Positions 12,098-29,185 of a DNA stretch of 32,092 bases are shown piece by piece. The notes beneath the pieces are model-generated. The model searched no databases. It was not told the DNA's origin and worked only from the letters and a program-made list of their open reading frames with translations. Made by a program: the position numbers and the translations under genes. This DNA is from Thermodesulfobacteriota bacterium (GTDB lineage Bacteria; Desulfobacterota; GWC2-55-46; JADFVP01), in NCBI GenBank assembly GCA_035288385.1, contig DATEAM010000124.1:1-32092 (forward strand), given 5' to 3'. Positions within the stretch are counted from its first letter, which is position 1; each line of letters begins with the position of its first letter.

Positions 12098-12178
12098 GAT
12101 AGGCCTTCCGCACTTTCGAAGGACTGCCCCGGCAGGGTTCCCGCCGGTTTGCCCTGAGTGGCGGCCATGGAGGGCGGT

Positions 12179-13600: not shown

Positions 13601-13601
13601 C

Positions 13602-15428
13602 TCAACCCTTCTCTCTCAGCATCTCCACCATCTTTTCCAGCCCGCCTCCGTACTGCGTTGTCCCGAGCCCTATGCACCGCATGTCCCTTACCAGTATATT
13701 CAGGGTGAGCACAATCGGTATGTACACTGTGGAGCCGCTGGTGCGAAGCGTTGTAAGGACTGCGTACAGGTCGTCTTTTGGAAAGCTCCCCACTACAATC
13801 AGGTGCACCGGCCTCGTAGAGCCCACGGAATCCGCATCAGGGACTATGGACGTCTCATAGCCCTTCGAGCCCATGAAGAGCTGCAGGTCCCTCGCCTCGT
13901 CGGGTTTGTTCGATATTATCGTTATCCTTCCCGAGTCCCTGTTCAAGACCGCCTTGATAGCCTTCTCTATCTGGTCCTTGTCGAAAGGTTTTGATATGTA
14001 CCCGTTTACGGCGACCTGCGGGCCCGACTTCTCGTCGTTAATCACCGAGACCATGTAAACCGGTATGCCGAGGACGCTCGAGAGCGTCCTTATCTCGCTG
14101 AACTGCTCCTCCCCTTCGAGGTAGCCCGTGATGATCGCATCCGGGTGCCTGAGTCTTGCGAGCTCGACGGCGGTGCGGGTGCTGTTCGCCCCGAGGGTCC
14201 TGTACCCCATGGCCTCGAGGTTCTCCCTCAATATCCTTCTCATCGCCGTGTCGTCCTCGAGGATCATTATCTGCCCCCCCACGAGGTCCACGCCCCTCGT
14301 GGCCATCGCGTCCTCGCGGGCGGCTATTGACTTCTTGTAAAGAGTAAAATAAAAGGTCGAGCCCTTGCCGAGCTGGCTCTCCACCCATATCCTTCCCCTG
14401 TGACCCTCTATAATCTTCTTGCAGATGCTCAGCCCCAGGCCCGAGCCCTTGGCCCTTCCAGCAAGCTCGTCACCTATGCGGTAAAACTCCTCAAAGACCT
14501 TCTCCTTCTCTTCCGGATATATCCCCTCGCCCGTGTCCCTTACGAATACGCGTATCTCCTCCGGCATCTCCTCGGCGCCGGCAGTGATGCCGCCCCTGGA
14601 GGTGAATTTAACGGCGTTGCTCAGGAGGTTCAACATCACCTGAAGTAGCCTGTTCCTGTCCCCCTTTACGAGTGTGAGGTTCCCGGGAAGGTTGGTCTCC
14701 ATGAAAAGGCCCTTGTTCTTCGCCAGCGGCAATATCGTCTTTACCCCGGTCTGAATCACCTCGCCCACGTCCACGTTGTCCATGTGCCACTGCGTCCTGC
14801 CGGAATCGAGCCTCACCACGTCGAGTATCTCGTTTGTGAGCTGCGTAAGCCTCTCGCTCTCCTCGTTTATTATACCGAGAAACTCCTTTCTCGTGTCATC
14901 GTCTATGTCGGAGTAGTTAAGGAGTATCTCGGAAAAGGAACGTATCGAAGAGAGAGGGGAGCGTATCTCATGGGAGATGGAGGAGAGGAAGTGGGTCTTG
15001 TTAACGTCCAGTTCCTTAAGCCGCTCGTACCTCTCCATCATGGAGTCTATCTGCGACTGGAGGTTGGTTATATTCAGGTTAAGGGCGTTGGTGAGGCCGT
15101 GGTAGGTATCGGAGGTCTTCCTGACGCTGTCCTCTTCGCCTTTTATTACCCCGGAAAGATACCCGGAGGCCAGCGCCATGACAAGGAAGGCTGGCACGTT
15201 TTCCCCGACGGCGTAAAAGGGGTATTCATCGCCCACGATAAGGGGAAGTATGGCGTAGAGGGCGCAGAAGGTGAGGGAGGAGAGCAACAGGGAGTTCGGG
15301 TCGAAGAAACGGGTGAGCAGTAGTATCGCCGGGAAGTAGATAAGCCTCAGAGGGCTCTCCACCCCGCCGGTAAGAAAGACCGCCGGAATAAGTCCCGGGA
15401 GAACGAAATAGAAAAATACCTTATTCAT
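13602..15428 (-). CDS. membrane sensor histidine kinase with two C-terminal degenerate receiver-like domains
   Basis: 608 aa with N-terminal hydrophobic helices and the H-box FLSSISHEIRSPLSSI. HATPase_c blocks are LLSNAVKF, DTGEGI and GSGLGLSICK. Two REC-like domains follow (IMILEDD...PDAIITGYLEG...ISKPF and ITIISNKPDE...HLIVVGSFP), and neither has the phospho-acceptor Asp. There is an 8-nt overlap with the upstream receiver gene. Confidence 0.85.
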   Translation of the reverse strand: MNKVFFYFVLPGLIPAVFLTGGVESPLRLIYFPAILLLTRFFDPNSLLLSSLTFCALYAILPLIVGDEYPFYAVGENVPAFLVMALASGYLSGVIKGEEDSVRKTSDTYHGLTNALNLNITNLQSQIDSMMERYERLKELDVNKTHFLSSISHEIRSPLSSIRSFSEILLNYSDIDDDTRKEFLGIINEESERLTQLTNEILDVVRLDSGRTQWHMDNVDVGEVIQTGVKTILPLAKNKGLFMETNLPGNLTLVKGDRNRLLQVMLNLLSNAVKFTSRGGITAGAEEMPEEIRVFVRDTGEGIYPEEKEKVFEEFYRIGDELAGRAKGSGLGLSICKKIIEGHRGRIWVESQLGKGSTFYFTLYKKSIAAREDAMATRGVDLVGGQIMILEDDTAMRRILRENLEAMGYRTLGANSTRTAVELARLRHPDAIITGYLEGEEQFSEIRTLSSVLGIPVYMVSVINDEKSGPQVAVNGYISKPFDKDQIEKAIKAVLNRDSGRITIISNKPDEARDLQLFMGSKGYETSIVPDADSVGSTRPVHLIVVGSFPKDDLYAVLTTLRTSGSTVYIPIVLTLNILVRDMRCIGLGTTQYGGGLEKMVEMLREKG

Positions 15429-15792
15429 TCCTCTCCCCCAGGATGCTCCTTATCCTGGCCACTATCTCCTTGGGACTGAAGGGTTTTGTTAGAAACTCGT
15501 CTGCGCCTTCACGCAGGCCCTGCTCCTTGTCGATCTCCTGACCCTTCGCCGTGAGTATTATCACGTAGCTGTCCTTCAACTCAGGGTCGGCTTTTATCGC
15601 CCTGCAGGTGTTGAACCCGTTCATCTTGGGCATCATGAGGTCGAGAAAGATAATCCTCGGCTTGAGGCTCCGGGCCTTCCTGAGCCCTTCTTCCCCGTCC
15701 CTGGCCACCTCGACCTCGTAGCCTTCCTTCTTGAATACAAAGGAGAGCGAGCGCTGTATGAAAGGTTCGTCGTCAACAACGAGTATGGTCAT
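15421..15792 (-). CDS. single-domain CheY-like response regulator
   Basis: 123 aa with canonical REC residues: VVDDEP, the phospho-acceptor Asp in FLDLMMP, ILTAKG and TKPF. Confidence 0.9.
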   Translation of the reverse strand: MTILVVDDEPFIQRSLSFVFKKEGYEVEVARDGEEGLRKARSLKPRIIFLDLMMPKMNGFNTCRAIKADPELKDSYVIILTAKGQEIDKEQGLREGADEFLTKPFSPKEIVARIRSILGERNE

Positions 15793-15814
15793 CTGTCTCT
15801 CCGCGTTCTAAATG

Positions 15815-17218
15815 CTACATCTCCACGAAATAGTTCTCCCAGGCCTCGGTAACGCCCTCTATCGTCATCTCCGGAGGACGGTTGTGGTAGTGCGCGCTGT
15901 CTATTATGTGGTCGATTATGTCTCTGGGGTGGCAGGCGTTGAGCCTTACTCTGAGCCTCCTGTAGAAGTGGCTCATCAGGTGGTCGAAGACCTCCACCCT
16001 GAAGTCTATCCCGTTGGCGGCGCACACCCTCCTGAATATCTCCTCGTACTCCTGCTCGGTGGGGTGGTTTATCTGTATCTTGTACCTTATCCTCCTCAGG
16101 AAGGCCTCGTCCACGAGCCTCCCAGGCTCTATATTCGTGGCGAAAATGACGAGCTGGTCAAAGGGTATCTCGAACTTCATTCCCGTGTGGAGCGTGAGGA
16201 AGTCCTCGCCCCTCTCCAGAGGCACTATCCACCTGTTAAGGAGGTTCTCGGGGGATATCTGCTGGCGGCCGAAGTCGTCAACGATGAAGACCCCGTTGTT
16301 GGCCTTCATCTGGAGGGGGGCCTCGTAAAACTTGGTCACGGGGTTGAAGTTGAGGTCCAGCATCTTTATCGTCAACTCCCCGCCGGTCATTACCACGGGC
16401 CTCTTTATGTTCACCCATCTCTGGTCCAGGTTGTCCTTCTCGCCCTCCTCCTTGACAGGTATGTGAGTTACGGGGTCGAAGACCGTTATCACCTCTGAGC
16501 CCACGAGAATGGAGTAAGGGATGCAGACGGCGCCGGGCAGGACGTTTCCAATCGTATCGGCTATCGTCGTCTTCCCGTTGCCCGGGGGTCCGTAGAGGAA
16601 GATCGCCCTACCGGAACTCACGGCGGGACCGAGGCGCCTTAGCGTGTCGCTTATGACGAGGTGGGAGAAGGCGTCGGCAATGCGCCTCTCGCTCACGTAT
16701 ATGTGTTTTATCGTCTGGAGCTCGACTATGCTGCGGTAGTCCTCAAGGGGGACGGGGGCCGGGCCGACGTACCTGTTTAGCTCAAGGAGATCTTGCCCCC
16801 TGTGCCTGCCCTTTTCAGTTATGTTGAAGTTGAAGGACTCGCGCATGAACCCGCCGGCGCCCTTTACCTCTATGAACCGGTCTTTCCTCAGAATCTGCAC
16901 CGCGTGGTCTATGATCGCTATGGGGAGCTTTATCCGGACGGCCAGGTCCTTGAGGTTGAACTCCCCGATAAGCAGTATATGCTTCATCACAAGGTCGGTG
17001 ATGAAACTCAACTCCAGGCCCGTCTCAGTTACGCCCTTCGGCGTATAGGGGTGACGCTTGAGGAACCGCTCCAGATCATCGGGGGCTATGTGATGAAGGG
17101 CCACGAGGTTCGTCCCAAGCCTCCCTCCCCGGAGTTTCTGCCTCTCGAGGGCCTCATCGAGCTGCTGCTCGTCTATGACCTTCTCTCTTATTAGTCTCTG
17201 TCCAAGATATTCCTTCAT
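15815..17218 (-). CDS. AAA+ ATPase with N-terminal MshEN-like (T2SSE_N) putative c-di-GMP-binding domain and a central winged-helix-like region
   Basis: Walker A LYGPPGNGKTT, Walker B VFIVDDFG, an Arg-finger region LRRIRYKI, and a classic AAA lid. The N-terminus holds two 24-residue MshEN-type motifs, YLGQRLIREKVIDEQQLDEALERQ and RLGTNLVALHHIAPDDLERFLKRH, separated by 5 residues. The ORF track start is 17236; the ATG at 17218 (MKEYLGQ) is favoured. Confidence 0.85.
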   Translation of the reverse strand: MKEYLGQRLIREKVIDEQQLDEALERQKLRGGRLGTNLVALHHIAPDDLERFLKRHPYTPKGVTETGLELSFITDLVMKHILLIGEFNLKDLAVRIKLPIAIIDHAVQILRKDRFIEVKGAGGFMRESFNFNITEKGRHRGQDLLELNRYVGPAPVPLEDYRSIVELQTIKHIYVSERRIADAFSHLVISDTLRRLGPAVSSGRAIFLYGPPGNGKTTIADTIGNVLPGAVCIPYSILVGSEVITVFDPVTHIPVKEEGEKDNLDQRWVNIKRPVVMTGGELTIKMLDLNFNPVTKFYEAPLQMKANNGVFIVDDFGRQQISPENLLNRWIVPLERGEDFLTLHTGMKFEIPFDQLVIFATNIEPGRLVDEAFLRRIRYKIQINHPTEQEYEEIFRRVCAANGIDFRVEVFDHLMSHFYRRLRVRLNACHPRDIIDHIIDSAHYHNRPPEMTIEGVTEAWENYFVEM

Positions 17219-17240
17219 GGCTGCGCCCCGTAACATCTTT

Positions 17241-19763
17241 CTACTGTAGCTTGTCCTCCCGCCAGACCAGTCCCGTCTCGTCGTTGAACTTTGTTACGGT
17301 ATCCGGGCCATCGACCATACCCGTGAATTGATCTTCGTCGTCCCAGAAAACACCCTCGGGTACGAGAAACCTTATTATAACCTTTCCGGAGGATAAGTCC
17401 ATCTCGTACTCTTTGACCCTCTCCCGGACCCTGGTCTCGTAGAGACTGAAGACGAGCCTTATCCTTCCCGGGTCTCCGGTGTTTTCCACGACGAACTCAT
17501 AGGCAGCGTGCTCGGCCCTCGGCACAGTAAAGACCCTTACCGTCCAGGGTTCTTTGTCCACGGTCAGATCCCCTTTCTCTTCCTTCGCCTCCACAACGCT
17601 CTTGCCTTTTCCCTCTGACGAACTCATGGGGTGCGGCTTCTTGTAAAGGGTGTTTTTAACTCGGACTGGCGGCAGGGGGCCTTCCATGAAAAACTCTATC
17701 TTTAAGTCCACCGGGAAAAAGGCGCCCCTTTTTTTCTTCTCCTCGTCCTCGGCGATTTTCCCTTCCCGCCCCTTCATGCCGGCGAGGACGGAGCTTACCT
17801 CGTCGTGCGTCTTGGTATAGTCCCCCTCATGAACGACTATCAATTTCTGAGGCGTATGTATCTCGGCGACGACTTCCGGGAACCCGGCATCGGTGGGTTC
17901 CTTGCCGGCTTCCCTCCGCCCCGGGCCCGCACCTTCCGGTCCCGTCTCCCCCTCGGGGGTATGTATGGAGGCGACGATGGTATCCTCTGCGCCGCCTCGC
18001 TCCAGGACCTTCAACTCTCCCCTCTTGCCCGGCATGTACTCGGTAAGGGGCTGTATCTCTTTTTCGGGCATCTCTATGGACGCAACTATCGTATCCGCCC
18101 CGATATCGGCCTCTTCGGACCTGCCTTCAATGTCATCTTCTTTTAAATCCCGCCGGCCCGGGAGGTCTGTGCCCTCGGGGGTCTCTATTGACGCGACTAT
18201 TGTCTCGATAGCCTGGACGGGCTCGACGACCTTTTCAGCGGGCCTTTCAAAAGCCCCTTCTTTCGTCAACAGGGACTCTTTTGACACCTCTGGCTGCGCG
18301 GTAGAGGCTACAGCCATGGGAGCGGGCAGGTCCGACGTTTTTTCGGCCTCTTTGTCAGGCCCTTCCACTTCTTCGGCAGCCCCGTGCGAATCTATTTTAT
18401 CTTGCACGGCGAGGTCGGTCAGGCCTATCATATCGAGGTTTTCGAGGCCGTAAAAAATCCCGGGCTTCCTGGCCTCGAGCCCGTCGGTATTTAGAGCGAG
18501 CCTTGCTGGAAGGCTTACAGCTTGAGAGCGGGCCTCTTCATCCGGCCCCTCTTCACCGACAATGCAGGCCACGGGTTCGTCGAGCTCCGCATAGGAGTCT
18601 TGCTTATCCATGTAGCCGCCCCTGGCGTCCTTTACAGCCTCAAGGGCGCTGTAAAGGGGGAGGGTTCCCGAATAGAGGGCAGGGGCTTCGGTCATACCCT
18701 CCTCCACGGATTTCGCGGCGGATGGGCCCCCGGCACTTTTCTTTATCTCCTCCTTTTCGGACCTCTCGAGATCATCGACGGCAGACTCTTTCTCCTTTAT
18801 CCCGGGCGGCTTTATTACCCTCTTCTTGTCCACCCACCTCACCACAACGGTCCTGTCTTCACCGTCAAGGGGTTCGAGTTTTTTCTCTATGACCCCGCTC
18901 GATATTATGCTGACGCCGCTACCCACGAAGTCGGCAACCGCCCCTCCGGAGGTCTTTTCATTGACGGGGGGACGCCCCTCGGGCGTCTTCTCTCCGGCGA
19001 CGGGTCTTTCCGTTACCTTTATATCCCCTACCTCCTTCTCCGGACTGACTCCCGGTATATACACCCCGTTCTTCTCGACCCCGGAGGACTCTTCCCTGTA
19101 CAACCCGGCCATCCTCTCCTTACCGCCGTAAGGTTCTTCCGTCGGTACCTTTTCTTTTATGGCGCTATCCTTATGAGGACCGGTCCCGGCAGGCCTTGCA
19201 GCGCCCTGGGCGACGGCCTCTGACAAGGGCGGTTTCTCTACGAGCGGAAAAGACTTGCCGGCGGCCTGGGGAGCGTCCTTTTTAGCAGGCGGAGGAGGGA
19301 TTTTCGCCTCCCCACTCTTGCCTTCGGGCCGGAAAGAGCCGGCTGCCGCAGCTTTTTTAACCTCTTTCGCCTCTTTTACCGGTGGTTTGGCGATTCTGGG
19401 CCCTGCGGTCTTTCCAGGCGGGTTTGAGGGTTTTAGTTCCCGGGGCTTTTCCTTTTTTATATCCCCGAGCGCCCCGGTGGCCTCGGACTTCTCCTTCAGG
19501 GCCCTCTTTGCCGGTATAGTACCCACGGGGTTTTTTACGTCCCTTTCCTCGACGGGGGGCTCTTTCTCCTCCATCCGGGGTAATGCCGCCGTCTTCCTCT
19601 CGCCTTCCTTGAGATAGACAAAATACATCTCGAAAGCGCTCGTATAATTCATCCCCTTAATAAGGGGGAGCGTGAGGAACAGGTACAGGACCACAAAGTG
19701 GAGGAACAGAGAGTACAGGAGGCAGGAAGTTATGGGATTTCTCCCGGAAAGAGACGTCTTCAT
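17241..19763 (-). CDS. 840-aa orphan protein: N-terminal TM anchor, long Pro/Lys/Glu-rich spacer, four TIVASI(E/H)TPE repeats, unassigned beta-rich C-terminal domain
   Basis: Long ORF with an ATG start, ending 4 nt before the AAA+ ORF. The single N-terminal helix CLLYSLFLHFVVLYLFLTL contains an S-x3-H pattern like TonB anchors. I recognised no known C-terminal domain. Confidence 0.8.
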   Translation of the reverse strand: MKTSLSGRNPITSCLLYSLFLHFVVLYLFLTLPLIKGMNYTSAFEMYFVYLKEGERKTAALPRMEEKEPPVEERDVKNPVGTIPAKRALKEKSEATGALGDIKKEKPRELKPSNPPGKTAGPRIAKPPVKEAKEVKKAAAAGSFRPEGKSGEAKIPPPPAKKDAPQAAGKSFPLVEKPPLSEAVAQGAARPAGTGPHKDSAIKEKVPTEEPYGGKERMAGLYREESSGVEKNGVYIPGVSPEKEVGDIKVTERPVAGEKTPEGRPPVNEKTSGGAVADFVGSGVSIISSGVIEKKLEPLDGEDRTVVVRWVDKKRVIKPPGIKEKESAVDDLERSEKEEIKKSAGGPSAAKSVEEGMTEAPALYSGTLPLYSALEAVKDARGGYMDKQDSYAELDEPVACIVGEEGPDEEARSQAVSLPARLALNTDGLEARKPGIFYGLENLDMIGLTDLAVQDKIDSHGAAEEVEGPDKEAEKTSDLPAPMAVASTAQPEVSKESLLTKEGAFERPAEKVVEPVQAIETIVASIETPEGTDLPGRRDLKEDDIEGRSEEADIGADTIVASIEMPEKEIQPLTEYMPGKRGELKVLERGGAEDTIVASIHTPEGETGPEGAGPGRREAGKEPTDAGFPEVVAEIHTPQKLIVVHEGDYTKTHDEVSSVLAGMKGREGKIAEDEEKKKRGAFFPVDLKIEFFMEGPLPPVRVKNTLYKKPHPMSSSEGKGKSVVEAKEEKGDLTVDKEPWTVRVFTVPRAEHAAYEFVVENTGDPGRIRLVFSLYETRVRERVKEYEMDLSSGKVIIRFLVPEGVFWDDEDQFTGMVDGPDTVTKFNDETGLVWREDKLQ

Positions 19764-19823
19764 GACGAGGAGACGAAATTTTTAAAAACATGACCCATCT
19801 GAGAGGAGTTACGACCTTGGGCT

Positions 19824-20183
19824 TCATGACGCAAAGACCAGTCTGTCTCCCACTTCGATCCCGGACTCCCCCACGGTACCCGCGGGTAGCTCCAGAACGG
19901 TCCTTGCCCTGAAGACGATTTTAGAGAACCTGTTCGGCTGTATGTTCTCTACAATATCTACTATTACGTTCTCGGAATCAAGGAATAAAACGTCTATGGG
20001 GAATTTCATCCCCACCGTGTGTATCCCCCTGCACGGTTTTATCCAGAGGGACTCGCCTTTTGGGAAGCTATCTTTGCCGAGCAGCCCCTTCATCCTTTTA
20101 AAGAGGCCGTCCGCAACCGTGACCGTCGTGGATACGAATCTTCCGTTCCTTGAATTGCGGGCCGATAGGGAGTCAGAAGACAT
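19824..20183 (-). CDS. DUF192 (COG1430) domain protein
   Basis: DUF192-like blocks are VTVADGLFKRMKGLLGK, LWIKPCRGIHTVGMKFPIDVLFLD and TVLELPAGT. The ORF track starts at a TTG at 20216; the ATG at 20183 is favoured. Confidence 0.8.
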   Translation of the reverse strand: MSSDSLSARNSRNGRFVSTTVTVADGLFKRMKGLLGKDSFPKGESLWIKPCRGIHTVGMKFPIDVLFLDSENVIVDIVENIQPNRFSKIVFRARTVLELPAGTVGESGIEVGDRLVFAS

Positions 20184-20294
20184 TGAAAAACCCGGATTCT
20201 TAAAACCCCCCGGCAAGCATGACTTACCCGGGGGGTTCCGTTAAAAGTGCAAAGGTGAGGGCTTTCTGGATATCCTCGTCAGCCCCACCCATGG

Positions 20295-20349
20295 TTGGCA
20301 CAGCCCCGGATTGCCCCGGCCCGAGATTGGCACAGCCCCGAGTTGCCCC
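20295..20349. repeat. 23-bp direct repeat x2 (TTGGCACAGCCCCGRRTTGCCCC), 32-bp period, in the tadC-DUF192 spacer
   Basis: The copies at 20295-20317 and 20327-20349 are identical at 21 of 23 positions. A second direct repeat, ACATCCGCCCCT, occurs at 20370-20381 and 20386-20397. Confidence 0.85.
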
Positions 20350-20362
20350 ACATCCCCTCCCC
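20336..20362 (-). other. canonical G-quadruplex-forming motif on the coding (minus) strand
   Basis: The minus strand reads GGGG-A-GGGG-ATGT-GGGG-CAACTC-GGGG. At least five further C4 tracts on the plus strand lie within 20284-20397. Confidence 0.5.
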
Positions 20363-20497: not shown

Positions 20498-21421
20498 CTA
20501 CATTTCAGCAAAGACCCTCATGATCCTGATCATCGCCGGCACTCCAATCACAACGAACATGGAGGGGAGGAGCAGGAAGACCAGCGGGAAGAGGAGCTTG
20601 ATAGCGGTCTTTGCCGCCCTCTCTTCCGCCAGCTGTCTCCTTCTTATCCTGAGCGAGTCCGAGTGTACGCGCAGGCTCTCGGCAAGGCTCGTGCCGAGGC
20701 GTTCGGTCTGTATCAGCATGGCCGAGAAGGCCTTCACGTCGCTCTCTCCGATCCTATCAGCCATGTCCTTGAGGGCCTCGTGGCGCGGTTTCCCGGCCCT
20801 TGATTCCTGTATGCAGATCTTCATCTCCTGGGCGAGAGGGCTCTTTGCGAACTGCCGGTCCTGGGATATCCTCAACATGGCAGACTCCATGCTGAGCCCG
20901 GCCTCCACGCAGACCGTCATCAGGTCCAACACGTCGGGCAGGTCGTGGAATATCTGGATCCTTCTCTTCTTGACCTTGTTGGAGAGCCAGTAGGTGGGCA
21001 GGAGGAAGCCGATTATGCCGAGGATGATGACGCTCAGGAGAATCATCCTCGGGTCATTCTCCACGGGGAGCCCGTAGAAGACGAAATACACGCCGGCGAA
21101 GAGGAGGGCGAGGAATATCTTGGCCCCGATGAAGATGGGCAGTACCTCTCTCCTGTAGCCGGCGGAGACGATGGTCTTTCTGTACCTCCCGTACTCGTGG
21201 GGCCTCAGCGGCATCCTCCTGCCGAGTCTTGCGAGGAAACCCTGCCAGCCCGCAGGCGTCGGCCTCAGGAGACTGGAGACCTCGCCTCCTTCCTCGCTCG
21301 CCCTGAGCGCGTCGATCCTCTCTTCGAGAACGCTTTTGCTCGGGACAAAGAGATAAAATATGAAGAAGAGAACGAAGGCGGTGGCGACAAACACAAAGCT
21401 TAAGATGGCGTATAGAGGCAT
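20498..21421 (-). CDS. tadC: Tad pilus inner-membrane platform protein TadC (T2SS F family)
   Basis: 307-aa polytopic membrane protein with a T2SSF-like cytoplasmic domain (FHDLPDVLDLMTVCVEAGLSMESA). It is the second of two paralogues directly after cpaF. Confidence 0.85.
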   Translation of the reverse strand: MPLYAILSFVFVATAFVLFFIFYLFVPSKSVLEERIDALRASEEGGEVSSLLRPTPAGWQGFLARLGRRMPLRPHEYGRYRKTIVSAGYRREVLPIFIGAKIFLALLFAGVYFVFYGLPVENDPRMILLSVIILGIIGFLLPTYWLSNKVKKRRIQIFHDLPDVLDLMTVCVEAGLSMESAMLRISQDRQFAKSPLAQEMKICIQESRAGKPRHEALKDMADRIGESDVKAFSAMLIQTERLGTSLAESLRVHSDSLRIRRRQLAEERAAKTAIKLLFPLVFLLLPSMFVVIGVPAMIRIMRVFAEM

Positions 21422-21437
21422 GAGTAGACCCTTCCGT

Positions 21438-22409
21438 TCATATCCTTATGTTTATAATCCTTTTTATGACCAGAAAACCGGCTATCTGCGCGGAGACGGC
21501 GAAAAATATGGCGTACCAGCCCCATGTCACGCTCACGAGCTCCTCTATATACCCGGGGGTCGTGAAATAGAAAAAGAGCGCCATGAATATCGGGGCGGCG
21601 GCGAGTATGTAGCCCGAGGTCCGCGCCTGGGCCGTGTAGACCCTGACCTGGCGTTTAATCCTGATCCTCTCCCTTATGGTGCGCGACAACCTCTCGAGTA
21701 TCTCACCGAGGTTTCCGCCTATCTCGCGGTGGATGTTCACGGCGAGGATAAAAAACCTCAGGTCCGTGCTGTCCATCCGGGAGTTCAGGTGCTGGAGCGA
21801 TTCCCTCAGGGAAAGCCCGAGGACCTGTTCCTCGTACAGGGTCTTGAAAAGGCCGGCGGTCGGTTCCGCGGTCTCCGTGGCCACGAGCTGTACGGCGGCG
21901 CTGAAGGAGTGGCCCGCCTGGAGTGAACGGGCTATCATGTCCAGGACGTCAGGGAACTGTTCGAGAAACTTGTTATACCTCGCGTCCTTTTTAAACTTGA
22001 GGAAAAAATATGGCGAGATCACGCCAATGATCCCGAGTATTATGGATGGCACAGGTCCCTGGTTGAGGAGGATCCCGACTATCACGCCGGCGACGGCCAG
22101 GAGAAGGGCTACCCCGATAATGGACTTCACATCGATCCTCAGCCCCGCCCTGTCAATAAACCTGTGGAGGCTCTGTACGAGCCTTAACCTGTAAAGGAGC
22201 CTGTCCAGGGGGCTCATCTCCCCGAGTATCTCGATTCTCAGCTCCGTGGGGAACCTCCTGTCCGAGACGTCAAGGGCCAGGTTCCTCAGGCGTTTCTTGA
22301 GCTCATGCCTCGGCGAGGCCTTTACCGCGGCGTAGCTCATAAAAAGGGTTATGAGCCCGAGAAACCCGGCCGCGAAGAAGAGTATCGCTATCAACAGGAT
22401 CGTCGTCAT
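21438..22409 (-). CDS. tadB: Tad pilus inner-membrane platform protein TadB (T2SS F family)
   Basis: 323-aa polytopic membrane protein with a T2SSF-like domain ([21 protein letters not shown]). Its start overlaps the cpaF stop by 4 nt. Confidence 0.85.
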
Positions 22410-23713
22410 TTCAACGCCTCGTACTCGAATATACCCGAGGGCACTTCCACCCCGGTGACCTTTATCTTGTCCATGCTCCTGGGCCTTACCCCGGTGGGAC
22501 GGAAGTGGCCGAGGACCTCTCCGTTGGGACCCATCCCGATCCTTTCGAACATGAAGATGTCCTGCATGACGATGGTATTGCCCTCGAGTCCCGTTATCTC
22601 CGATACGCTCATTATCTTGCGTTTACCGTCGGAGAGCCTGCTCAGCTGAACCACTATGTGTATGGCGGAGGATACCTGTTCGCGTATCGCCCTATCGGGA
22701 AGGTCCATCCCGGCCATGAGCACCATGGTCTCAAGCCGCATCATGGCGTCCCTCGTGGTGTTGGCGTGTATGGTGGACAGAGAGCCGTCGTGGCCCGTGT
22801 TCATCGCCTGGAGCATATCGAGGGCCTCGGAACCCCTCACCTCGCCGACGATAATCCTGTCGGGCCTCATCCTCAGGGCGTTTCTGACGAGGTCCCTCTG
22901 GGTTACCTCGCCCCTGCCCTCTATGTTCGGTGGACGGGTCTCGAGCCTCACCACGTGGTCCTGCTTCAATTGCAGCTCGGCGGAGTCCTCGATGGTGATG
23001 ATCCTCTCCGTAGTGGGTATGTACTCGGAGAGGATGTTCAGCAACGTCGTCTTCCCGGAGCCCGAGCCACCGGATATGAGCATGTTGAGCCTTGCCTTGA
23101 TGCAGCCCATGAGAAAGGCGCCGATGTCCTTGTTGATGGAGCCGAAGTTGAGGATGTCGTTCATCTTCAGGGGCGTAACCCCGAACCGCCTTATGGAGAG
23201 CACGGGGCCGTCGAGGGCGAGGGGGGGGATGATGGCGTTGACCCTTGAGCCGTCAGGGAGCCTGGCGTCGACGTAGGGAGAAGACTCGTCCACGCGTCTG
23301 CCCACCTTGGAGACTATCCTGTCTATTATCTGGAGAAGGTGGTTGTCGTCCCTGAAGATCATGTCCACCTTCTTCAGTTTTCCGAACTTCTCTATGTAGA
23401 CCTGGTCGTAGCGGTTGACCAGTATGTCGGATATCTCGGGGTCGGCAAGAAGGGGCTCGAGGGGGCCGAGGCCGAAGGTCTCGTGCTGGATGTCCGTTAT
23501 GAGGCTCTCGCGCTCGGCAAAGCTCAGGGGCACCCCTTCGTCGGCGATGAGGCCCTCGAGGATCCTGACTATCTCCTTTCTGAGTATCTCCGTCTCAATG
23601 AGGTTGATATTCGTCAGGTCGAGGCTCTCGATGAGTTTCCTGTGGATCCTCGTCTTGAGACTCTGGTACTTATCCAGCTTTGAAACAGGGACCTCTCTTG
23701 TCATGTCTGCCAT
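22406..23713 (-). CDS. cpaF: Tad pilus secretion ATPase CpaF/TadA
   Basis: 435 aa with Walker [13 protein letters not shown], the Asp box/Walker B region [12 protein letters not shown], the His box [13 protein letters not shown], and a typical CpaF N-terminal domain. Confidence 0.92.
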
Positions 23714-23737
23714 AAGCCTACCTCACACTTTGAAGAG

Positions 23738-24874
23738 TTAACCGTGTATTTTTATAATCTCTTTCGATATATCCTCCATGGCGGTGTTCACCCCGGAGCG
23801 CGGGTTCTCCTCGCTTATCGGTATGCCCTTGTTGAGGCACCTCATGGCGAGGTCATACTCGTTGGGTATGGAAAAAGCTATGGAGCGCCCGAGGACCTTC
23901 TCGGCGTCCTCAATCCTTATGTCGCCCTTCTTTATGTACCTGTTTACGATAATCTTTACCCTGTCCCTGAGGCCGAGCTTGTCGAAATACTTAAGATACC
24001 TCTGCAGGTGCCTTATCCCGGGCAGGCTCATGATGAGGACCACCATTATGGAGTCCGACATCTTTATGGCCTCTATGGTCCTCTCGTCTATGACGGCGCC
24101 CGTGTCGATTATTATGTAGTCGAACATGGTCTTGAGGAGCTCGATGAGCTTCGTTATGTCGGACCCGGGGATTCTCGCCCCCTCATCGACGTTCTGGGGC
24201 TCGGCGAGGACGTGGACCCCTGAGGGGTGTTTGGTTATGACGCCCTTCATGAAGCTCTCGTCGAGGCGGCTCATGTTGGTGGTCACGTCGCTTATCGTGT
24301 AGGTCGATTTTATATTGAGGAAGGTGGTCACGTCCCCGGCGTCGAGGTCCAGGTCGACGATGACGGTGGGTTTGCCCGTGACCTTGTGGACGTTGGTGGC
24401 GAGGTTTACCGCCAGGGTCGTAACCCCCACTCCGCCCTTGGGGCTGAAGAGCGTATAGACCTTGCCGACCTCGGCCTCCGGGGCCGGTTTGGTTATCCAC
24501 AGGCGCCCCATCTTCTGGAGGGCCGATGAGAGGTCCTCCTCGGTAATGGGCCTCAGGATGTACTCCGTGGCCCCGGCCTTCATGACCTTGAGGATGGTAT
24601 CGGCCGACCTGTCGGAGGAAGTTACGAATATCGACGTCCTGGGGAACCTTTCAAGGATGGAGTGTACCTTTCCTACGGCGTCGTCGATACCGTCGGTGAG
24701 CTCCATTATGACGACGTTGGGCCTCTTCTTGTGCACCATCTCGATGCCGCTCTCGAAGTTGGAGGCCACGCCCTCGATGGAGGCGTGGTCTCCGAGGTGC
24801 TGTATGAAAGATACCATCGTCTTGACGGAGTCGGTGTCGCTGTCGATTATCACTATCGCTATGTTGGGGTTCAT
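23738..24874 (-). CDS. cpaE: CpaE/TadZ: atypical receiver domain fused to a ParA/MinD-type ATPase
   Basis: 378 aa. The N-terminal REC-like domain has Glu at the acceptor position (VVIMELTD). The deviant Walker A is FSPKGGVGVTTLAVNLA. Confidence 0.88.
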   Translation of the reverse strand: MNPNIAIVIIDSDTDSVKTMVSFIQHLGDHASIEGVASNFESGIEMVHKKRPNVVIMELTDGIDDAVGKVHSILERFPRTSIFVTSSDRSADTILKVMKAGATEYILRPITEEDLSSALQKMGRLWITKPAPEAEVGKVYTLFSPKGGVGVTTLAVNLATNVHKVTGKPTVIVDLDLDAGDVTTFLNIKSTYTISDVTTNMSRLDESFMKGVITKHPSGVHVLAEPQNVDEGARIPGSDITKLIELLKTMFDYIIIDTGAVIDERTIEAIKMSDSIMVVLIMSLPGIRHLQRYLKYFDKLGLRDRVKIIVNRYIKKGDIRIEDAEKVLGRSIAFSIPNEYDLAMRCLNKGIPISEENPRSGVNTAMEDISKEIIKIHG

Positions 24875-24902
24875 CTTATACTACAATATCCTCCTCAAGT
24901 TT

Positions 24903-26240
24903 TTAAAATACGAGCACCACTTTCCGGGAGAGGAAGTCCGGAACCGGGTCGCAGTCCACGCATTGGATGTTCTTTATACGGACCGCAAAGGTGATGTTCG
25001 GGTCAAGCTCTTCCGAAAGGTCCGCCGGCTCAAGGCGCTCGTAGGTGCAACCGTTGTCCGGGTTGCAGGAGCACTCTCCCTGCGGACTGTTTCCTTTCGC
25101 CGCTACCTCGGTAATCGTTATCAGCGCCCATTGCCGGATTGTATGGGTTTCATTTTGTATTCCCGTGGGACACTCGTCGAGTATGGGGGCTATGACCTCC
25201 CACTCGGCGACGCGGTCGGACGTCTCGTCGCCGCATATTTCAGTCGCCCCTCCCGTGCATACCTTGTTGTCTCTGTCGTACCTGGGGTTTATAAAGGCGC
25301 CCCTGAACACCCTGCTGGTTTTTGCATCAACTCCATTGGTGGTCGCGACCTCTCCAAGGCATTCGCCCCCGACCTTCCTTTCGCATATAAAGTCACGCAG
25401 GGCGGTACTGCTCGTGCTTTGTTGATCTTCATCGAGAGTTGTCCATGCAATCGCCCTGGCAGGGTCTTCGTATTCAGTAGCGGTCCCTGACGTGTAAAAT
25501 ATCAACCCGTCTTCGCCGAGGTCAAGGAGGCACGAATCCGTACACAACGCTATGGGCGCCTCGGCCCTTGCCGGCCTCGAGGCTATGGCGGCCCTCTGCA
25601 CTCCCATCGTGGGCTTTAGTATAAGGAAACCGAAGAAGAGGTCTACCTCTCCCCCGTTGTACGTTGCTTCAGCGGTCCTCCTCGTCCGGGCGAGGACGGC
25701 GTTTATCGGTGTGCCTTCCGGGTCAAGGGAGTCCCCGTCCCAGAACCCCACCACTATGTCTTTGGTAGGGTCGTTGGCCTGGTTAAGTTCCGACGGAGGA
25801 GAGTCGCAGTCGGGGCCCGAGTCCACGAGATAGACGCTCCTGCCCACGGCGGCGTTCCGGCAGGCGAACTTCCATGCCTCCTGCCTGGCCTCGATCTGGC
25901 TGGGGTCGTCTGTGTCTTCGAGCTTGGAGGCCCCTGCGAGGGCGGCGGCGTCCGCGGCGTTCTGGAGCTGGCCCCTTACATAGTACATGAAGGCGAAGTC
26001 TATCAATACGAAGAAAAAGATGAGGAATAAGGCGAGGACCCCTACGACGAGGACAACGGCCTGCCCGCTATGCCCGGGACCGCCTTTGCGCCCCATCTGT
26101 CCAGCCTGCCGCTCCACTCCCCCGAGCACCACCTCTCCCCCTTGTCCTGTCCGCCCCACGCGCCCCGTCTCTCCCCTGCCCCCCTCTTGCTTCTCAGCGT
26201 ACTGGGAAGAAAGGCTATCAGTTCTCCTGGGCCGTATCAT
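24903..26240 (-). CDS. tadG: TadG-like pilus-associated protein with Cys-rich C-terminal region
   Basis: The TadE/G-like N-terminus is GQAVVLVVGVLALFLIFFFVLIDFAFMYYVRGQLQNAADAAALAGA. The extracytoplasmic part contains 14 Cys. The start is uncertain: 26240 (GGGGGAAG upstream, 23-nt overlap with cpaC) or the ATG at 26096. Confidence 0.75.
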   Translation of the reverse strand: MIRPRRTDSLSSQYAEKQEGGRGETGRVGRTGQGGEVVLGGVERQAGQMGRKGGPGHSGQAVVLVVGVLALFLIFFFVLIDFAFMYYVRGQLQNAADAAALAGASKLEDTDDPSQIEARQEAWKFACRNAAVGRSVYLVDSGPDCDSPPSELNQANDPTKDIVVGFWDGDSLDPEGTPINAVLARTRRTAEATYNGGEVDLFFGFLILKPTMGVQRAAIASRPARAEAPIALCTDSCLLDLGEDGLIFYTSGTATEYEDPARAIAWTTLDEDQQSTSSTALRDFICERKVGGECLGEVATTNGVDAKTSRVFRGAFINPRYDRDNKVCTGGATEICGDETSDRVAEWEVIAPILDECPTGIQNETHTIRQWALITITEVAAKGNSPQGECSCNPDNGCTYERLEPADLSEELDPNITFAVRIKNIQCVDCDPVPDFLSRKVVLVF

Positions 26241-27591
26241 CTGCTTCCCCCTGGGGTGTCCCCTGAGTGCCGTCCGTCTGCTCTGTGCTCTTTTTAGAGG
26301 TCTTCGGTACGGGTATCCACTGGAACTCCATCTTTTCCTCAGGCGTTGGAGAGGCTTCCCCGGGAAGCTCGGGCCTCACGCCCGGCGCTATCGGCTTTAC
26401 GAGCGAAGGGGTTATGAAGAAGGCGAGCTCCGTGGTCTCGAGCTCGTCTCTCGTGGTGCGGAAGACCGCGCCGAGGATCGGGATGTCGCCGAGCAAGGGG
26501 ATCTTGGAGATGTTCTTTCTCATCTCCTCGTTCAGGAGCCCGGCGAGTATGAGGCTTTCATGCTCCTTCAGGTCTACGCTCGTTGAGACCTGGCGGGTGT
26601 CTATCTCCGGGGCTATGGCGCCCTGGAAGCTCAGGAACTGTACGACGTTGCTCACCTCGGCCGGGTCTATCTTGAGCCTTATTATCCCGTCTTCGAGGAC
26701 CTCGGGTTTGAAGTTGAGCTTTATGCCCACCTCCTCGAATGTTATGGAAATGGTGGAGTCAGCCCCCACGCCCCGGACCACCTGAACGGGGATCCTCGAC
26801 CCTGCGAGGAACTCGCCCTCCTCGCCGCTCCTGACTACGAGGTTGGGTTCAGCGAGGACCTTGGCGAGCCCCTTGTCGGAAAGCGCCCTCAGGAAAGCCG
26901 CCACCCCGCTCGTGAAATGGGAAACCCCTATCTGGGGGACGATGTCGCCGAAGTCATAACCGTCTATGCCGGGCGAGTCTCCCGTGAGGACGCCGTCTGG
27001 AGTGGCGAACAGGCCCGCGGAGGTGCCCTCGGCTTCCGAGCCCTTTATAAGGAAGCTAAGACCGAGCTCCATTAGCTTCGTCCTGTCGATCTGCGCCACC
27101 TTCACCTCGAGGAGCACCTGCTGCGGTTCCTTGATCTTCAAGAGGTTTATAACCTTTGCCCCGTATGCCGAGCTGAGGGTCTCTATCCTTTTGATCGTCT
27201 CTGTGTTCTTAATCGTACCCTTTAAAACGATGGTGGTTCCCACAAGCGAGACGTCCACCTCGTCTTCCGGGGCGATATCCTTAAGCTTCTGCCTGAGATC
27301 CGTTACGTCTCCCGCCACGAAGAGGTCGAAAAAGGTCCTCTTGCCCTCCTCGTTCCATATGATCAGGCTCGTTGCGCCTACCTTCTTGCCGTTGAGAAGG
27401 ATCTCGGTGGGAGAGATCAGGATGAGTTCAGCCACGGAGGGGTCTGATATGGATACCCTTTTGCTGTTCTCCTTAAGGGTAACGACCGTGGACTTGCCCA
27501 CGCTCACCTCAACGGGTATTGCGGCCATCGCCGTCGTAGAGATTAAAAAGGCGCACAAGACGAAGAACGTATATAATACTCTTCTCGTCAT
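26218..27591 (-). CDS. cpaC: Tad pilus outer-membrane secretin CpaC/RcpA
   Basis: 457 aa with a signal peptide and a CpaC-type N-terminal pilus-formation domain (GKSTVVTLKENSKRVSISDPSVAEL). The secretin C-domain shows VLAEPNLVVRSGEEGEFLAG and IPLLGDIPILGAVFR. Confidence 0.9.
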   Translation of the reverse strand: MTRRVLYTFFVLCAFLISTTAMAAIPVEVSVGKSTVVTLKENSKRVSISDPSVAELILISPTEILLNGKKVGATSLIIWNEEGKRTFFDLFVAGDVTDLRQKLKDIAPEDEVDVSLVGTTIVLKGTIKNTETIKRIETLSSAYGAKVINLLKIKEPQQVLLEVKVAQIDRTKLMELGLSFLIKGSEAEGTSAGLFATPDGVLTGDSPGIDGYDFGDIVPQIGVSHFTSGVAAFLRALSDKGLAKVLAEPNLVVRSGEEGEFLAGSRIPVQVVRGVGADSTISITFEEVGIKLNFKPEVLEDGIIRLKIDPAEVSNVVQFLSFQGAIAPEIDTRQVSTSVDLKEHESLILAGLLNEEMRKNISKIPLLGDIPILGAVFRTTRDELETTELAFFITPSLVKPIAPGVRPELPGEASPTPEEKMEFQWIPVPKTSKKSTEQTDGTQGTPQGEADDTAQEN

Positions 27592-27630
27592 AATCCCCTC
27601 CTTAGAATGGACATAACCCCCCCCTGGAAT

Positions 27631-28518
27631 CTATTGCTGAACTTTGAACGTCTCTATCTGCTTGTTGCCGTCGCGCAGGACCTCCACATTGATGGTCCTC
27701 GCACCGGCCGCCTTCGTGGTGACGGGGCCCTTCTTTACGGCCCTTTTACCCGCGGCCTTCGCAACCCTCGGACTTGGCCCCGCCGGCCCCGCCGGCGCCG
27801 CTCCTATGACCCTGCTGATGGTGGCGCCTCCCGAGGCAAAAACGTCCTTATCGCCGTGCTTCCTCAGAAGGAGCTGGAGCCTTCCCTCCACGCTCGCCAG
27901 CGCGAGCCTCTCGGCCTCATCGGGTGTGACGTCGAGGGTTACGGTGGGGACTATTACGGGTTTGCCTTCCGCTTCCTGCTCTATTATCTGGCCCGTGGCC
28001 AGGACGGGGATGTTCTGGAGTATTATCTTGCTAAGCGGACCCCGCCTGCCTTCGGGGTTCTTGTGCGTCAGGACCACGTCCACCATGTTGCCCGGGGTAA
28101 TGAACCCGGCTACACCAGAGACCTGGTCAACGCCCACGGTCATGGCCCTGTGCCCCTCGGGGATCTTGTAGGTGAGGATCCCTGGGGCGCCTCCCCTCGG
28201 AACGAGTTTCGCCTCGGTGATCGGGTCACCGGACTGTATGCCCTGGAGCGCGACCCTGCCCACGGCGCCCGCCTCGGTCAAAACCGCCCTCTCGGGGACG
28301 TTGGCCTTGGGCCAGGTTACGACCTTGATCTGGGTCCTCTCTATGGTGGTCCCTACGGGTATGTCCTTGGAGGCCACGACGACCTGTTCGGTGGCCACCG
28401 CCTCCTTTACTATCTCTTGCTGTTCCCTCAGATAATTGTACAGGAGCCAGCTCGCGATCGCCGCAATCGCAACGGCGACCACGCCTATAACGACAACCGC
28501 CCTCGGTTTAGCTGCCAT
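27631..28518 (-). CDS. cpaB: Flp pilus assembly protein CpaB/RcpC (SAF domain)
   Basis: 295 aa with an N-terminal anchor and a SAF-like segment VVVASKDIPVGTTIERTQIKVVTWP. An RcpC-like region is followed by a basic Ala/Pro/Lys tail. Confidence 0.85.
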   Translation of the reverse strand: MAAKPRAVVVIGVVAVAIAAIASWLLYNYLREQQEIVKEAVATEQVVVASKDIPVGTTIERTQIKVVTWPKANVPERAVLTEAGAVGRVALQGIQSGDPITEAKLVPRGGAPGILTYKIPEGHRAMTVGVDQVSGVAGFITPGNMVDVVLTHKNPEGRRGPLSKIILQNIPVLATGQIIEQEAEGKPVIVPTVTLDVTPDEAERLALASVEGRLQLLLRKHGDKDVFASGGATISRVIGAAPAGPAGPSPRVAKAAGKRAVKKGPVTTKAAGARTINVEVLRDGNKQIETFKVQQ

Positions 28519-28579
28519 GATTACCTCCCTTTATCCTCCCTCGCTAAGAAACCAACTTCAGGACCTCAGACCTCGTCTC

Positions 28580-29020
28580 TCATATCTCATACCTCATGGA
28601 GGTTATCGAGGTCAAGAACATCCCCGCTGAGTCGCACTCAAGCGCGGGGTCGTCCGAAATAAAGCCAAGCTCCCACCTGACCACGGGGATAAAGCAGTCC
28701 CTTACGGTGACCATTACCATATCGCCTGCGTCAGGGTCGCCGCCTGAGCTGTTCAAGTCTATAATGTTTACGAAAACCTCGGCATCGGGTCTCCCGAGGG
28801 TGTCACGCACGGTTTGTACCACGTCAGGGTCGTTTTCCTCAAGGTCTGTCTGGACTACGGCGAACCTGGCCCCGACCCTGGCGGCGTTGTTAAGAGAGTT
28901 CTTCAGATGCCATGCCCTCGCCACCTCTGCGATGAGCAAAAATATCGCCAGAAGGATGATGAGCATGAACAGGGTCTCTATAACGGTCTGACCCCTTCTG
29001 TCATTAAAGGTGTTTCTCAT
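28580..29020 (-). CDS. tadE: TadE-like pseudopilin
   Basis: The N-terminus MRNTFNDRRGQTVIETLFMLIILLAIFLLIAEVARAW carries a G/QTVIE prepilin-peptidase-type site. The ORF track starts at a TTG at 29071; the ATG at 29020 is favoured. Confidence 0.8.
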   Translation of the reverse strand: MRNTFNDRRGQTVIETLFMLIILLAIFLLIAEVARAWHLKNSLNNAARVGARFAVVQTDLEENDPDVVQTVRDTLGRPDAEVFVNIIDLNSSGGDPDAGDMVMVTVRDCFIPVVRWELGFISDDPALECDSAGMFLTSITSMRYEI

Positions 29021-29185
29021 TTTCACGCCTACGCGCCTCCACGGACCACTGTCGCCCATGCTCCCTGGCAATCATGTGATCCATGGAGGCCGTATTGTTT
29101 TAGAGTGTCCAGGGTCTTTTCCAGGAGCCCTGCATTAAGTATAGCAGAAACTGGAGTGGTTGCGACGTAAGGCCTGGACCTGTAA

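Follow-up and report, generated by a model that had tools for sequence, protein, structure and literature searches.

Domain architecture of an ATPase encoded at a Tad pilus locus

The window analyzed here comprises all 32,092 nucleotides of contig DATEAM010000124.1 (GenBank assembly GCA_035288385.1) from a Thermodesulfobacteriota bacterium. On its minus strand, within a gene cluster for a Tad (type IVc) pilus, lies an open reading frame (ORF) that is the subject of this study. Its product is a cytoplasmic protein of three modules, namely, an N-terminal four-helix bundle like that of MshEN_N, a MarR-like winged helix, and an AAA+ ATPase. MshEN is a receptor for the messenger cyclic di-GMP (c-di-GMP), and a preliminary description of this DNA, made from the letters alone, had proposed that tandem MshEN-type motifs are fused here to an ATPase of the classic AAA+ type. 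The features of the protein and of its surroundings are collected in Table 1.

The length of 473 amino acids given for the ORF is counted from the first ATG. The residue numbering of the preliminary description is reproduced with this ATG, but M7 at position 17218 is the likelier real start, since most of the 120 close homologues (61 to 66% identity) begin at the corresponding alignment column, which holds Met in 97 of the 120. The protein probably has 467 amino acids.

No T2SSE domain was detected in the ORF by Pfam, compared to 226 bits for the neighboring tadA. Furthermore, no GAFTGA motif was seen in the translated sequence, and the Sigma54_activat model yielded E = 0.24 with no passing stretch. 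The AAA+ module is thus neither of the sigma-54 activator nor of the PilB/GspE type, as had been stated before.

Table 1. Features of the MshEN_N/AAA+ gene and the surrounding Tad locus in the window
Feature	Position	Strand	Remarks
MshEN_N/winged-helix/AAA+ ORF	15815..17236	-	473 aa counted from first ATG
MshEN motif 1, residues 10-33, YLGQRLIREKVIDEQQLDEALERQ	17138..17209	-	Deviations: Y for Arg, K for turn Gly
Spacer KLRGG, residues 34-38	17123..17137	-	Five residues, exact register
MshEN motif 2, residues 39-62, RLGTNLVALHHIAPDDLERFLKRH	17051..17122	-	Deviations: H48, H49, H62
MarR-like winged helix, residues 69-153 (predicted)	16778..17032	-	pLDDT mostly >90 in both models; Foldseek matches of MarR, PadR, and AspA type
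AAA+ ATPase module with helical lid, residues 196-473	15818..16651	-	From second model and Foldseek
Walker A GPPGNGKT, residues 216-223	16568..16591	-	G, G, N, G, and K invariant, T at least 90% (both clades)
Beta-rich insert, strand 2 to Walker B, residues 242-305	16322..16513	-	Six short strands by DSSP
Walker B VFIVDD	16274..16291	-	Asp-Asp instead of Asp-Glu; both Asp invariant
Beta-hairpin before sensor 1, residues 344-358, EDFLTLHTGMKFEIP	16163..16207	-	Predicted
Sensor-1 strand LVIFATN and arginine-finger segment DEAFLRRI	16088..16153	-	T, N, D, A, F, L, R, R, and I invariant
Core Tad genes, from the 3' end: tadC, tadB, tadA/cpaF, REC-tadZ, tadG-like, secretin rcpA/cpaC, rcpC/cpaB, tadE	20498..29071	-	
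Two Flp-type pilin genes (putative)	29468-29671, 29186-29419	-	G/QTV(I/L)EY, then hydrophobic stretch
DUF192 protein	19824..20216	-	Syntenic in L001, L002, L085, and L086
Upstream 840-aa protein, no family	17241..19763	-	N-terminal transmembrane helix, Pro/Glu/Lys-rich linker, conserved C-terminal domain
REC protein	15421-15792	-	Downstream of ATPase gene
Hybrid histidine kinase	13602-15428	-	Downstream
GAF-HD-GYP phosphodiesterase	12179-13600	-	HD and HHExxDGxGYP motifs intact

The N-terminus is homologous to MshEN_N

The MshEN consensus consists of two motifs of 24 residues each, RLGxx(L/V/I)(L/V/I)xxG(L/V/I/F)(L/V/I)xxxxLxxxLxxQ, that are separated by a spacer of five residues (PMC5013675). 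Translation of the minus strand between positions 17051 and 17209 yielded YLGQRLIREKVIDEQQLDEALERQKLRGGRLGTNLVALHHIAPDDLERFLKRH, i.e., residues 10 to 62 of the 473-amino-acid ORF, and confirmed the 53-residue segment quoted in the preliminary description. The segment matches 17 of the 22 specified positions with an exact spacer. Shuffling the protein sequence 20,000 times gave a maximum of 13 matches, reached five times, and elsewhere in the six reading frames of the window, no 53-residue segment free of stops scored above 12. Our motif scoring agrees with the earlier account of the spacer and of motif 1, which had listed only the exchanges of Arg and Gly. For motif 2, the His residues at the Gly and Gln positions had been recognized correctly, but there are three deviations instead of two, the third being H49 at the (L/V/I/F) position.

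At the profile level, the NCBIfam model NF053729 ("cyclic di-GMP-binding domain, MshE-related"; 53 residues) covers residues 11 to 61 with 57.6 bits (E = 7.7e-16; cutoff, 38) and reaches 61.7 bits on the isolated N-terminus of the window protein. In a search of PDB sequences with the N-terminus alone, the N-terminus of Vibrio cholerae MshE (5HTL) was the top match (E = 9.8e-6), followed by PilB of M. xanthus, two Geobacter PilB proteins, and PilF of T. thermophilus. A profile of the 120 close homologues matched 5HTL with E = 3e-9. We also compiled a two-clade sample (n = 129) that includes a second, mostly alphaproteobacterial clade with about 40% identity, and the corresponding profile matched PilF with E = 2.3e-17, the best stretch being located around its third GSPII domain. 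Weak matches to the N-terminus were obtained with the NfrB and EpsG models. The relation to T2SSE_N/MshEN profiles expected in the preliminary description was found with the MshE-related model NF053729 but not with Pfam T2SSE_N (PF05157), which did not match the ORF up to E = 10. Pfam as a whole gave only sub-threshold P-loop matches on the ORF, which say little about the N-terminus.

Both AlphaFold2 models of the protein place four helices at residues 5 to 11, 17 to 30, 34 to 40, and 46 to 53, with a predicted local distance difference test (pLDDT) score of about 81 to 90 from residue 11 on. This four-helix bundle is a predicted structure. With the profile match and the top-ranking PDB sequence, homology of the N-terminus to MshEN_N is established, and the proposed fusion of MshEN-type motifs to an AAA+ ATPase is borne out. 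No MshEN_C/T2SSE_N1 subdomain was found by Pfam behind MshEN_N in the ATPase protein.

Conservation of the MshEN_N domain was analyzed in both sets of homologues. All 120 close homologues agree in G12, Q33, G37, R39, G41, and N43, and 118 of them have Gly at position 38; both spacer glycines, G37 and G38, are at least 90% conserved in the two-clade alignment. G12 and Q33 are invariant in the two-clade sample as well, with Arg at position 39 in 124, Gly at position 41 in 127, and Gly at position 48 in 126 of the 129 sequences. In the close homologues, position 10 is mostly Leu or Gln, and Tyr, His, Arg, or Thr occurs at position 62. The second clade has the motif-1 Arg in 30 of 68 sequences and retains the turn glycines. 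Among distant representatives, some are near canonical (MRIGELLV..G..) and some are clearly degenerate (P0130, P0219, P0214, and P0209).

Ten of the twelve ligand-contact positions of V. cholerae MshE are identical in the window protein (L11, G12, L26, L30, Q33, R39, L40, G41, L55, and L59). The two changed contacts are Y10 in place of Arg and H62 in place of Gln. The strongest constraint lies on the ligand-contact positions, and since these are the most constrained residues, the alignments favor a conserved ligand site in which one half would be weakened.

Winged helix and AAA+ module

The preliminary description had noticed a winged-helix-like segment between the sensor and the ATPase, and both structure models and the Foldseek matches agree with it. 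The helix that would serve for DNA recognition has a hydrophobic and acidic character, conserved basic residues being few, and two of its positions show conservation of Asp/Gln/Asn and Glu/Asp/Gln. Owing to the scarcity of conserved basic residues in this hydrophobic and acidic helix, sequence-specific DNA binding by the winged helix appears weakly disfavored.

The GPPGNGKT-type AAA+ module described before was found at the expected place downstream of the winged helix. The key residues of Walker A, Walker B, sensor 1, and the arginine finger are invariant across the 129 homologues of the two clades. We conclude that the AAA+ ATPase should be catalytically intact and active and that it represents a family of its own.

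A first AlphaFold2 model, based on the 120 close homologues, had a pLDDT below 50 in the ATPase core, and its Foldseek search was informative for the winged helix only. A second model, from an alignment that also contained the clade with about 40% identity, reached a mean pLDDT of 87.9 and a predicted template modeling (TM) score of 0.82. In this second model, the beta-hairpin is placed between helix 3 and the sensor-1 strand. It corresponds to the DSSP strands 338 to 342 and 348 to 352 of the model, with a pLDDT near 90 and an invariant T-G at its tip. The beta-rich insert likewise contains many residues that are invariant in the two-clade alignment, including R, RP, and GGE.

The best fold match in Foldseek was Q8U0N8 of P. 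furiosus (8P49; E = 1.2e-12), with as many as some 410 columns aligned and a TM-score of 0.58 on the target. This uncharacterized protein has an experimentally determined structure, a homohexamer with a flexible N-terminal domain. Unlike the window protein, it is archaeal; it shares about 14% identity, has no known function and no Pfam family, and no MshEN_N domain can be inferred for it. A sequence profile search did not find 8P49. The next matches were the LonB ATPase domain, RuvB, MCM8/9, and BchI (E = 3e-10 to 1e-8), and proteasome and FtsH ATPases followed later. The hairpin before sensor 1, predicted for the window protein, is common to LonB, RuvB, MCM, and BchI, but TM-scores are modest, ranging from 0.21 to 0.59, and the window protein has no protease, RuvA-binding, or MCM N-terminal domain. 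It also differs from these proteins by its own beta-rich insert after strand 2 and by motifs that are more classic-clade-like.

At the sequence level, the P-loop and arginine-finger regions are closest to those of the classic-clade proteins Sec18/NSF, VCP, spastin, Msp1, and Rpt3. Pfam AAA (PF00004) reached 20.2 bits compared to a gathering threshold of 21.2 and aligned with profile positions 1 to 22 only, i.e., the P-loop. The classic AAA core is not known to have a hairpin before sensor 1. With the Pfam AAA match below gathering, the hairpin and an insert of about 60 residues present in the model, and the nearest folds outside the classic clade, the label "classic" used in the preliminary description could not be upheld; judged from the modeled fold, the protein does not demonstrably belong to this clade.

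We also considered an identity as the anti-phage defense ATPase IetA or IteA (PADLOC IetA, 39 bits; NCBIfam IteA, 37.8 bits with a cutoff of 510). This candidate was rejected because the matches represent local P-loop and lid similarity far under the NCBIfam IteA cutoff. Apart from this similarity, the window protein differs from these systems in that it has no IetS protease partner and resides in a pilus operon.

The ATPase gene lies in a Tad operon

The ATPase gene is located near the end of the Tad operon, following tadC, a gene for a DUF192 protein, and a gene for an 840-amino-acid protein. Tad (type IVc) genes were identified on the same strand, in agreement with the earlier assignment to a pilus operon. 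TadA of the window contains a T2SSE domain only and shows no MshEN match. Two small ORFs at the head of the tad cluster carry the Flp motif, and we take them to be Flp pilins. No prepilin peptidase gene was identified among the window ORFs scanned.

The 840-amino-acid protein encoded directly upstream of the ATPase gene had no match in Pfam, NCBIfam, PADLOC, or PDB sequences. Its transmembrane helix contains an S-x-x-x-H pattern (YSLFLHFVVL; IYSFIFHAVVL in L002) that recalls the membrane anchor of TonB, and TIVASI(E/H)(T/M)PE occurs three times in its linker. Some 100 to 190 amino acids at the C-terminus form a domain with 34 to 48% identity among relatives, which range from 260 to 840 amino acids in total length. 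In all six loci of close relatives with upstream sequence (L001, L002, L003, L004, L085, and L086), this C-terminal domain is encoded directly 5' of the ATPase gene, and the two genes form a conserved pair in the closest clade.

Downstream of the ATPase gene, the operon continues with genes for a REC protein, a hybrid histidine kinase, and an HD-GYP protein, and its last five genes overlap or are 1 to 22 nucleotides apart. Since the HD-GYP motifs are intact and the genes follow the ATPase gene in tight spacing, the operon likely carries its own c-di-GMP phosphodiesterase under two-component control. A promoter and terminator scan of positions 11900 to 21500 revealed no clear operon boundary. 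One sigma-70-like 10/12 site (17401 to 17374, minus strand) falls within the 3' end of the gene upstream, some 140 nucleotides ahead of the ATPase start; it could act as an internal promoter, a consensus match being no evidence by itself.

The TadZ/CpaE-like protein of the window (23738 to 24874, minus strand) has an N-terminal REC domain, as do its counterparts in L001, L002, and L086.

Distribution and genomic context of the family

The order Tad operon, DUF192 gene, gene(s) for unknown protein(s), and ATPase gene is kept in all four close relatives with long flanks (L001, L002, L085, and L086). The genes downstream of the ATPase gene vary. Genes for a small PilZ-domain protein (L086 only) and a family-2 glycosyltransferase (both loci) follow it in L086 (9531 to 10608) and L085 (9406 to 10161), and these genes replace the REC, kinase, and HD-GYP genes of the window. 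In L001, a convergent GGDEF gene adjoins the ATPase gene.

For a survey of the family, 82 loci were collected with one genome per species, 37 of them with full flanks, and a locus was called Tad-adjacent if at least two Tad components were present within 10 kb. Tad-adjacent loci amounted to 14 of the 82, or 9 of the 37 with full flanks, and came from several phyla; those of the cultured Nitrosomonas ureae Nm13 (L060) and Nitrosomonas sp. Nm84 (L061) are among them. They occur in three orientations relative to the Tad genes, i.e., co-directional, convergent (Nitrosomonas), and divergent. By our own estimate, such adjacency is far more frequent than chance would give if a genome has one or a few copies of the system, but it still concerns a minority of the loci. 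Most Desulfuromonadales loci and all four loci examined from the alphaproteobacterial clade have unrelated neighbors, and the Tad placement is absent from the latter four.

Two candidate features of the family as a whole were rejected. Clustering of the neighbors of the 82 loci found no universal neighbor gene, neighbors being lineage-specific, and adjacency of c-di-GMP enzymes is not a general trait, with such enzymes within 3 kb in only 3 of 47 loci. In a Limibacillus-type locus (L083, 7939 to 9896), a divergent GGDEF gene and a REC-EAL gene lie upstream of the ATPase gene, with no Tad genes nearby.

An exhaustive search of 1.84 billion representatives with the winged-helix-plus-AAA+ core returned 805 clusters at E ≤ 1e-30. 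MshEN_N is present in 21 of the best 150 of these 805 core clusters; alternative N-termini are FHA (P0133, P0147, and P0156), HDOD (P0189), or short tails. Because paralogues carry FHA or HDOD instead of MshEN_N, the N-terminus behaves as an exchangeable sensor slot. When clustered at 90% identity, the family still counts at least 8,000 clusters, and it is found in cultured Nitrosomonas, Desulfuromonas, and Mariprofundus. Database entries are named "ATPase," "AAA family ATPase," or "hypothetical protein" or have generic or apparently spurious labels, and no Pfam family exists for the winged-helix-plus-AAA+ core.

Comparison with known MshEN systems

With V. cholerae MshE (5HTL) and PilB/PilF, the window protein shares the 53-residue layout of two 24-residue motifs, 5-residue spacer, and four helices, and it is likewise tied to a pilus system of the type IV class. 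Unlike these motors, it contains neither MshEN_C/T2SSE_N1 nor a PilB/GspE ATPase, and its sensor is encoded by a separate gene beside a Tad motor that lacks MshEN. In the motif copy itself, the Arg of motif 1, the Gln of motif 2, and the two turn Gly residues of MshE and PilB are missing.

Fusions of MshEN or MshEN_N to other output domains were described by Wang et al. in 2016, and they include the NfrB glycosyltransferase, EpsG with AAA_31, REC, CheX, and CheA, among others (PMC5013675). The window protein follows the same principle of a portable sensor combined with another output domain. AAA_31 in EpsG is a P-loop domain of the MinD/ParA type and not AAA+, whereas the partner in the window protein is AAA+; in the part of Supplementary Table 4 of Wang et al. 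that was consulted, no AAA+ ring-ATPase partner is listed (PMC5013675). Full-text literature searches found no paper that describes an MshEN_N-AAA+ architecture or a receptor of the MshEN type for Tad systems. While the sensor and its general logic had been known, the partner ATPase family had not, nor had the association with Tad.

A putative c-di-GMP-gated accessory of the Tad pilus

Our preferred reading, to which we give about an even chance, is that the protein serves the Tad pilus as an AAA+ accessory gated by a cyclic dinucleotide. When c-di-GMP occupies the N-terminal bundle, the N-terminal domains would be repositioned, and this movement would gate ring assembly or ATP turnover, comparable to the way in which MshEN tunes MshE/PilB and NfrB (PMC5013675; PMC11656802). 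The output of the ring would act on the Tad (type IVc) pilus in this lineage. Since TadA/CpaF itself lacks MshEN, the Tad motor would receive in trans the messenger input carried in cis by MshE and PilB, and the presumably co-transcribed REC, histidine kinase, and HD-GYP genes would set the local c-di-GMP level. Domain homology, intact ATPase motifs, predicted folds, the position in the operon, and conserved synteny are results of the analysis, whereas c-di-GMP control of the ATPase is inferred, as are binding of the ligand, assembly into a hexamer, the sign of the regulation, and its target.

Several findings weigh against this reading. In the window copy, Tyr stands in place of the motif-1 Arg and His in place of the motif-2 Gln, and both turn glycines are replaced (K19 and H48). 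H48 is atypical even among close relatives, 115 of the 120 having Gly at this position, and the motif-2 Gln position is never Gln in either clade, the second clade having Ala or Val instead. In a calibration of NF053729 with the binders V. cholerae MshE (86.7 bits) and M. xanthus PilB (63.2 bits), the non-binding GSPII-A domain of PilF passed the cutoff with 54.3 bits. Because a non-binder also scores above the cutoff, a match to this model indicates fold and homology, not function. One of the deviations in GSPII-A is a His where the motif has Gln (PMC12002112). Measurable binding by GSPII-A was regained only in a truncated construct, from which the C-terminal subdomain and the N-terminal helix cap had been removed, with H-to-Q, R-to-Q, and S-to-R exchanges, and a perfect motif in the wrong structural context gave no binding (PMC12002112). 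We identified no target or partner of the ATPase. As to the genomic context, the Tad link is clade-specific, with 28 of the 37 full-flank loci having no Tad genes nearby, and many loci are situated among housekeeping genes, e.g., those for ClpB, DinG, and IspE. GGDEF, EAL, or HD-GYP genes are as rare near the family as stated above (by tblastn, with limited sensitivity).

The strongest alternative, possible though on the unlikely side, is that the MshEN_N domain is degenerate and binds no nucleotide. It would then serve as a structural or docking module as in XpsE and GSPII-A of PilF, and the ATPase would be regulated otherwise, e.g., through the REC and kinase genes. Besides the atypical H48, the His shared with GSPII-A, the inability of NF053729 to separate binders from GSPII-A, and the clearly degenerate distant members, the five deviations from the strict motif speak for this alternative; the relaxed pattern of Wang et al. 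(PMC5013675) also failed in both motifs, at Y10 and K19 and at H48, H49, and H62. However, G12, Q33, R39, G41, and the Leu clusters are held over about 60% divergence, and the changes reported to impair or abolish binding are absent from the window copy. Binding is reported to be impaired or abolished by replacement of a motif Gly (G11L and G40I; G11V/G40L in XpsE) and by exchange of cluster leucines for polar residues (L29R and L54H) (PMC5013675), and the motif-2 Arg is lost in non-binders, to Gly in XpsE (R38G; PMC5013675) and to Ser in GSPII-A (PMC12002112). The window copy shows no such replacement of a motif Gly, no loss of the motif-2 Arg, and no polar exchange of cluster leucines. Of the eight substitutions given for the non-binder XpsE, only the loss of the motif-2 Gln is paralleled in it. 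Moreover, changes of Arg9, Asp12, or Gln32 shifted the affinity by at most about fivefold in an earlier study cited by Wang et al. (PMC5013675).

An extension of our preferred reading, which we put forward tentatively and consider rather unlikely, would assign a more specific role to the ATPase. Perhaps with the upstream membrane protein as a partner, it would be the direct c-di-GMP receptor so far missing for a Tad machine, a separate hexameric AAA+ motor or regulator acting in trans that would switch the bifunctional TadA/CpaF between assembly states, and the family would be a new class of signal-gated AAA+ rings with exchangeable sensors (MshEN_N, FHA, or HDOD).

The preliminary description had taken the protein for a c-di-GMP-controlled AAA+ unfoldase or remodeler. 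In its explicit form, as a classic-clade unfoldase through whose central pore pilus proteins, e.g., pilins or subunits of the machine, would be threaded or extracted under c-di-GMP control, we judge this alternative improbable, and nothing was found in favor of substrate threading. The Walker A and the sensor-1/arginine-finger regions do match those of Sec18/NSF, VCP, spastin, Msp1, and Rpt3, DEAFLRRI reads like the classic second region of homology, and the gene is located in a pilus operon. However, only 22 residues were matched by the sub-gathering Pfam AAA hit, and in the model, the hairpin precedes sensor 1 and a large insert rich in beta strands takes the place of pore loop 1. On inspection of the sequence, no aromatic-hydrophobic-Gly pore-loop motif was seen after strand 2, and Walker B reads DD, not DE. 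In addition, 8P49, LonB, RuvB, MCM8/9, and BchI outrank the proteasome and FtsH ATPases in Foldseek, and no protease or substrate partner is conserved family-wide.

Slightly less probable still seems a DNA-binding regulator or DNA motor whose winged helix would bind near the tad genes and whose AAA+ ring would act on a transcription or DNA complex, remodeling it in response to c-di-GMP; in function, it would be similar to FleQ or VpsR without sigma-54. It would account for the confidently predicted MarR-like winged helix and for structural neighbors such as RuvB and MCM that act on DNA, and c-di-GMP-responsive AAA+ regulators exist, as exemplified by FleQ (PMC5013675). The properties of the recognition helix, the Sigma54_activat result with no GAFTGA motif seen, and the many members that stand alone among housekeeping genes argue against it.

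Some Desulfuromonadales make 3'3'-cyclic GMP-AMP (cGAMP), and we know of no cGAMP signaling in Nitrospirota or Thermodesulfovibrionales, as which the closest relatives of the window protein are annotated. As a ligand in place of c-di-GMP, cGAMP is highly improbable: a motif made asymmetric by the loss of an Arg and a Gln, half-sites unequally conserved across the family, many members from Desulfuromonadales and Geobacteraceae, and weak binding of cGAMP by V. cholerae MshEN (dissociation constant, 3.3e-4 M; PMC5013675) would fit, but both guanine-reading glycines, at which backbone amides exclude adenine, are kept, and the local operon encodes an HD-GYP c-di-GMP phosphodiesterase.

The preferred reading of a c-di-GMP-gated Tad accessory is of interest in several respects. 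To our knowledge, the route by which c-di-GMP reaches Tad pili is poorly understood, the single Tad motor lacking the MshEN domain found on type IVa motors. The family pairs a recognizable c-di-GMP sensor with an unstudied AAA+ ring, and its FHA and HDOD relatives suggest a modular, signal-gated ATPase platform. More generally, more enzymes that make or break c-di-GMP than receptors are known (PMC5013675). The somewhat doubtful ligand binding of the window copy limits the interest of the finding, and the calibration with GSPII-A calls for caution in annotation, since a match to a c-di-GMP motif profile is no proof of binding.

Further observations

A gene for tRNA-Pro (CGG) is located at positions 30029 to 30105 on the minus strand, between the tad cluster and a gene for a ClC chloride channel. 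In two relatives, the ATPase gene occurs in tandem copies, namely, in L017 (8498 to 11392), from a Desulfuromonas metagenome-assembled genome (MAG), and in L078 (10001 to 12770), from an Acidimicrobiales MAG; the products of such copies could form mixed rings.

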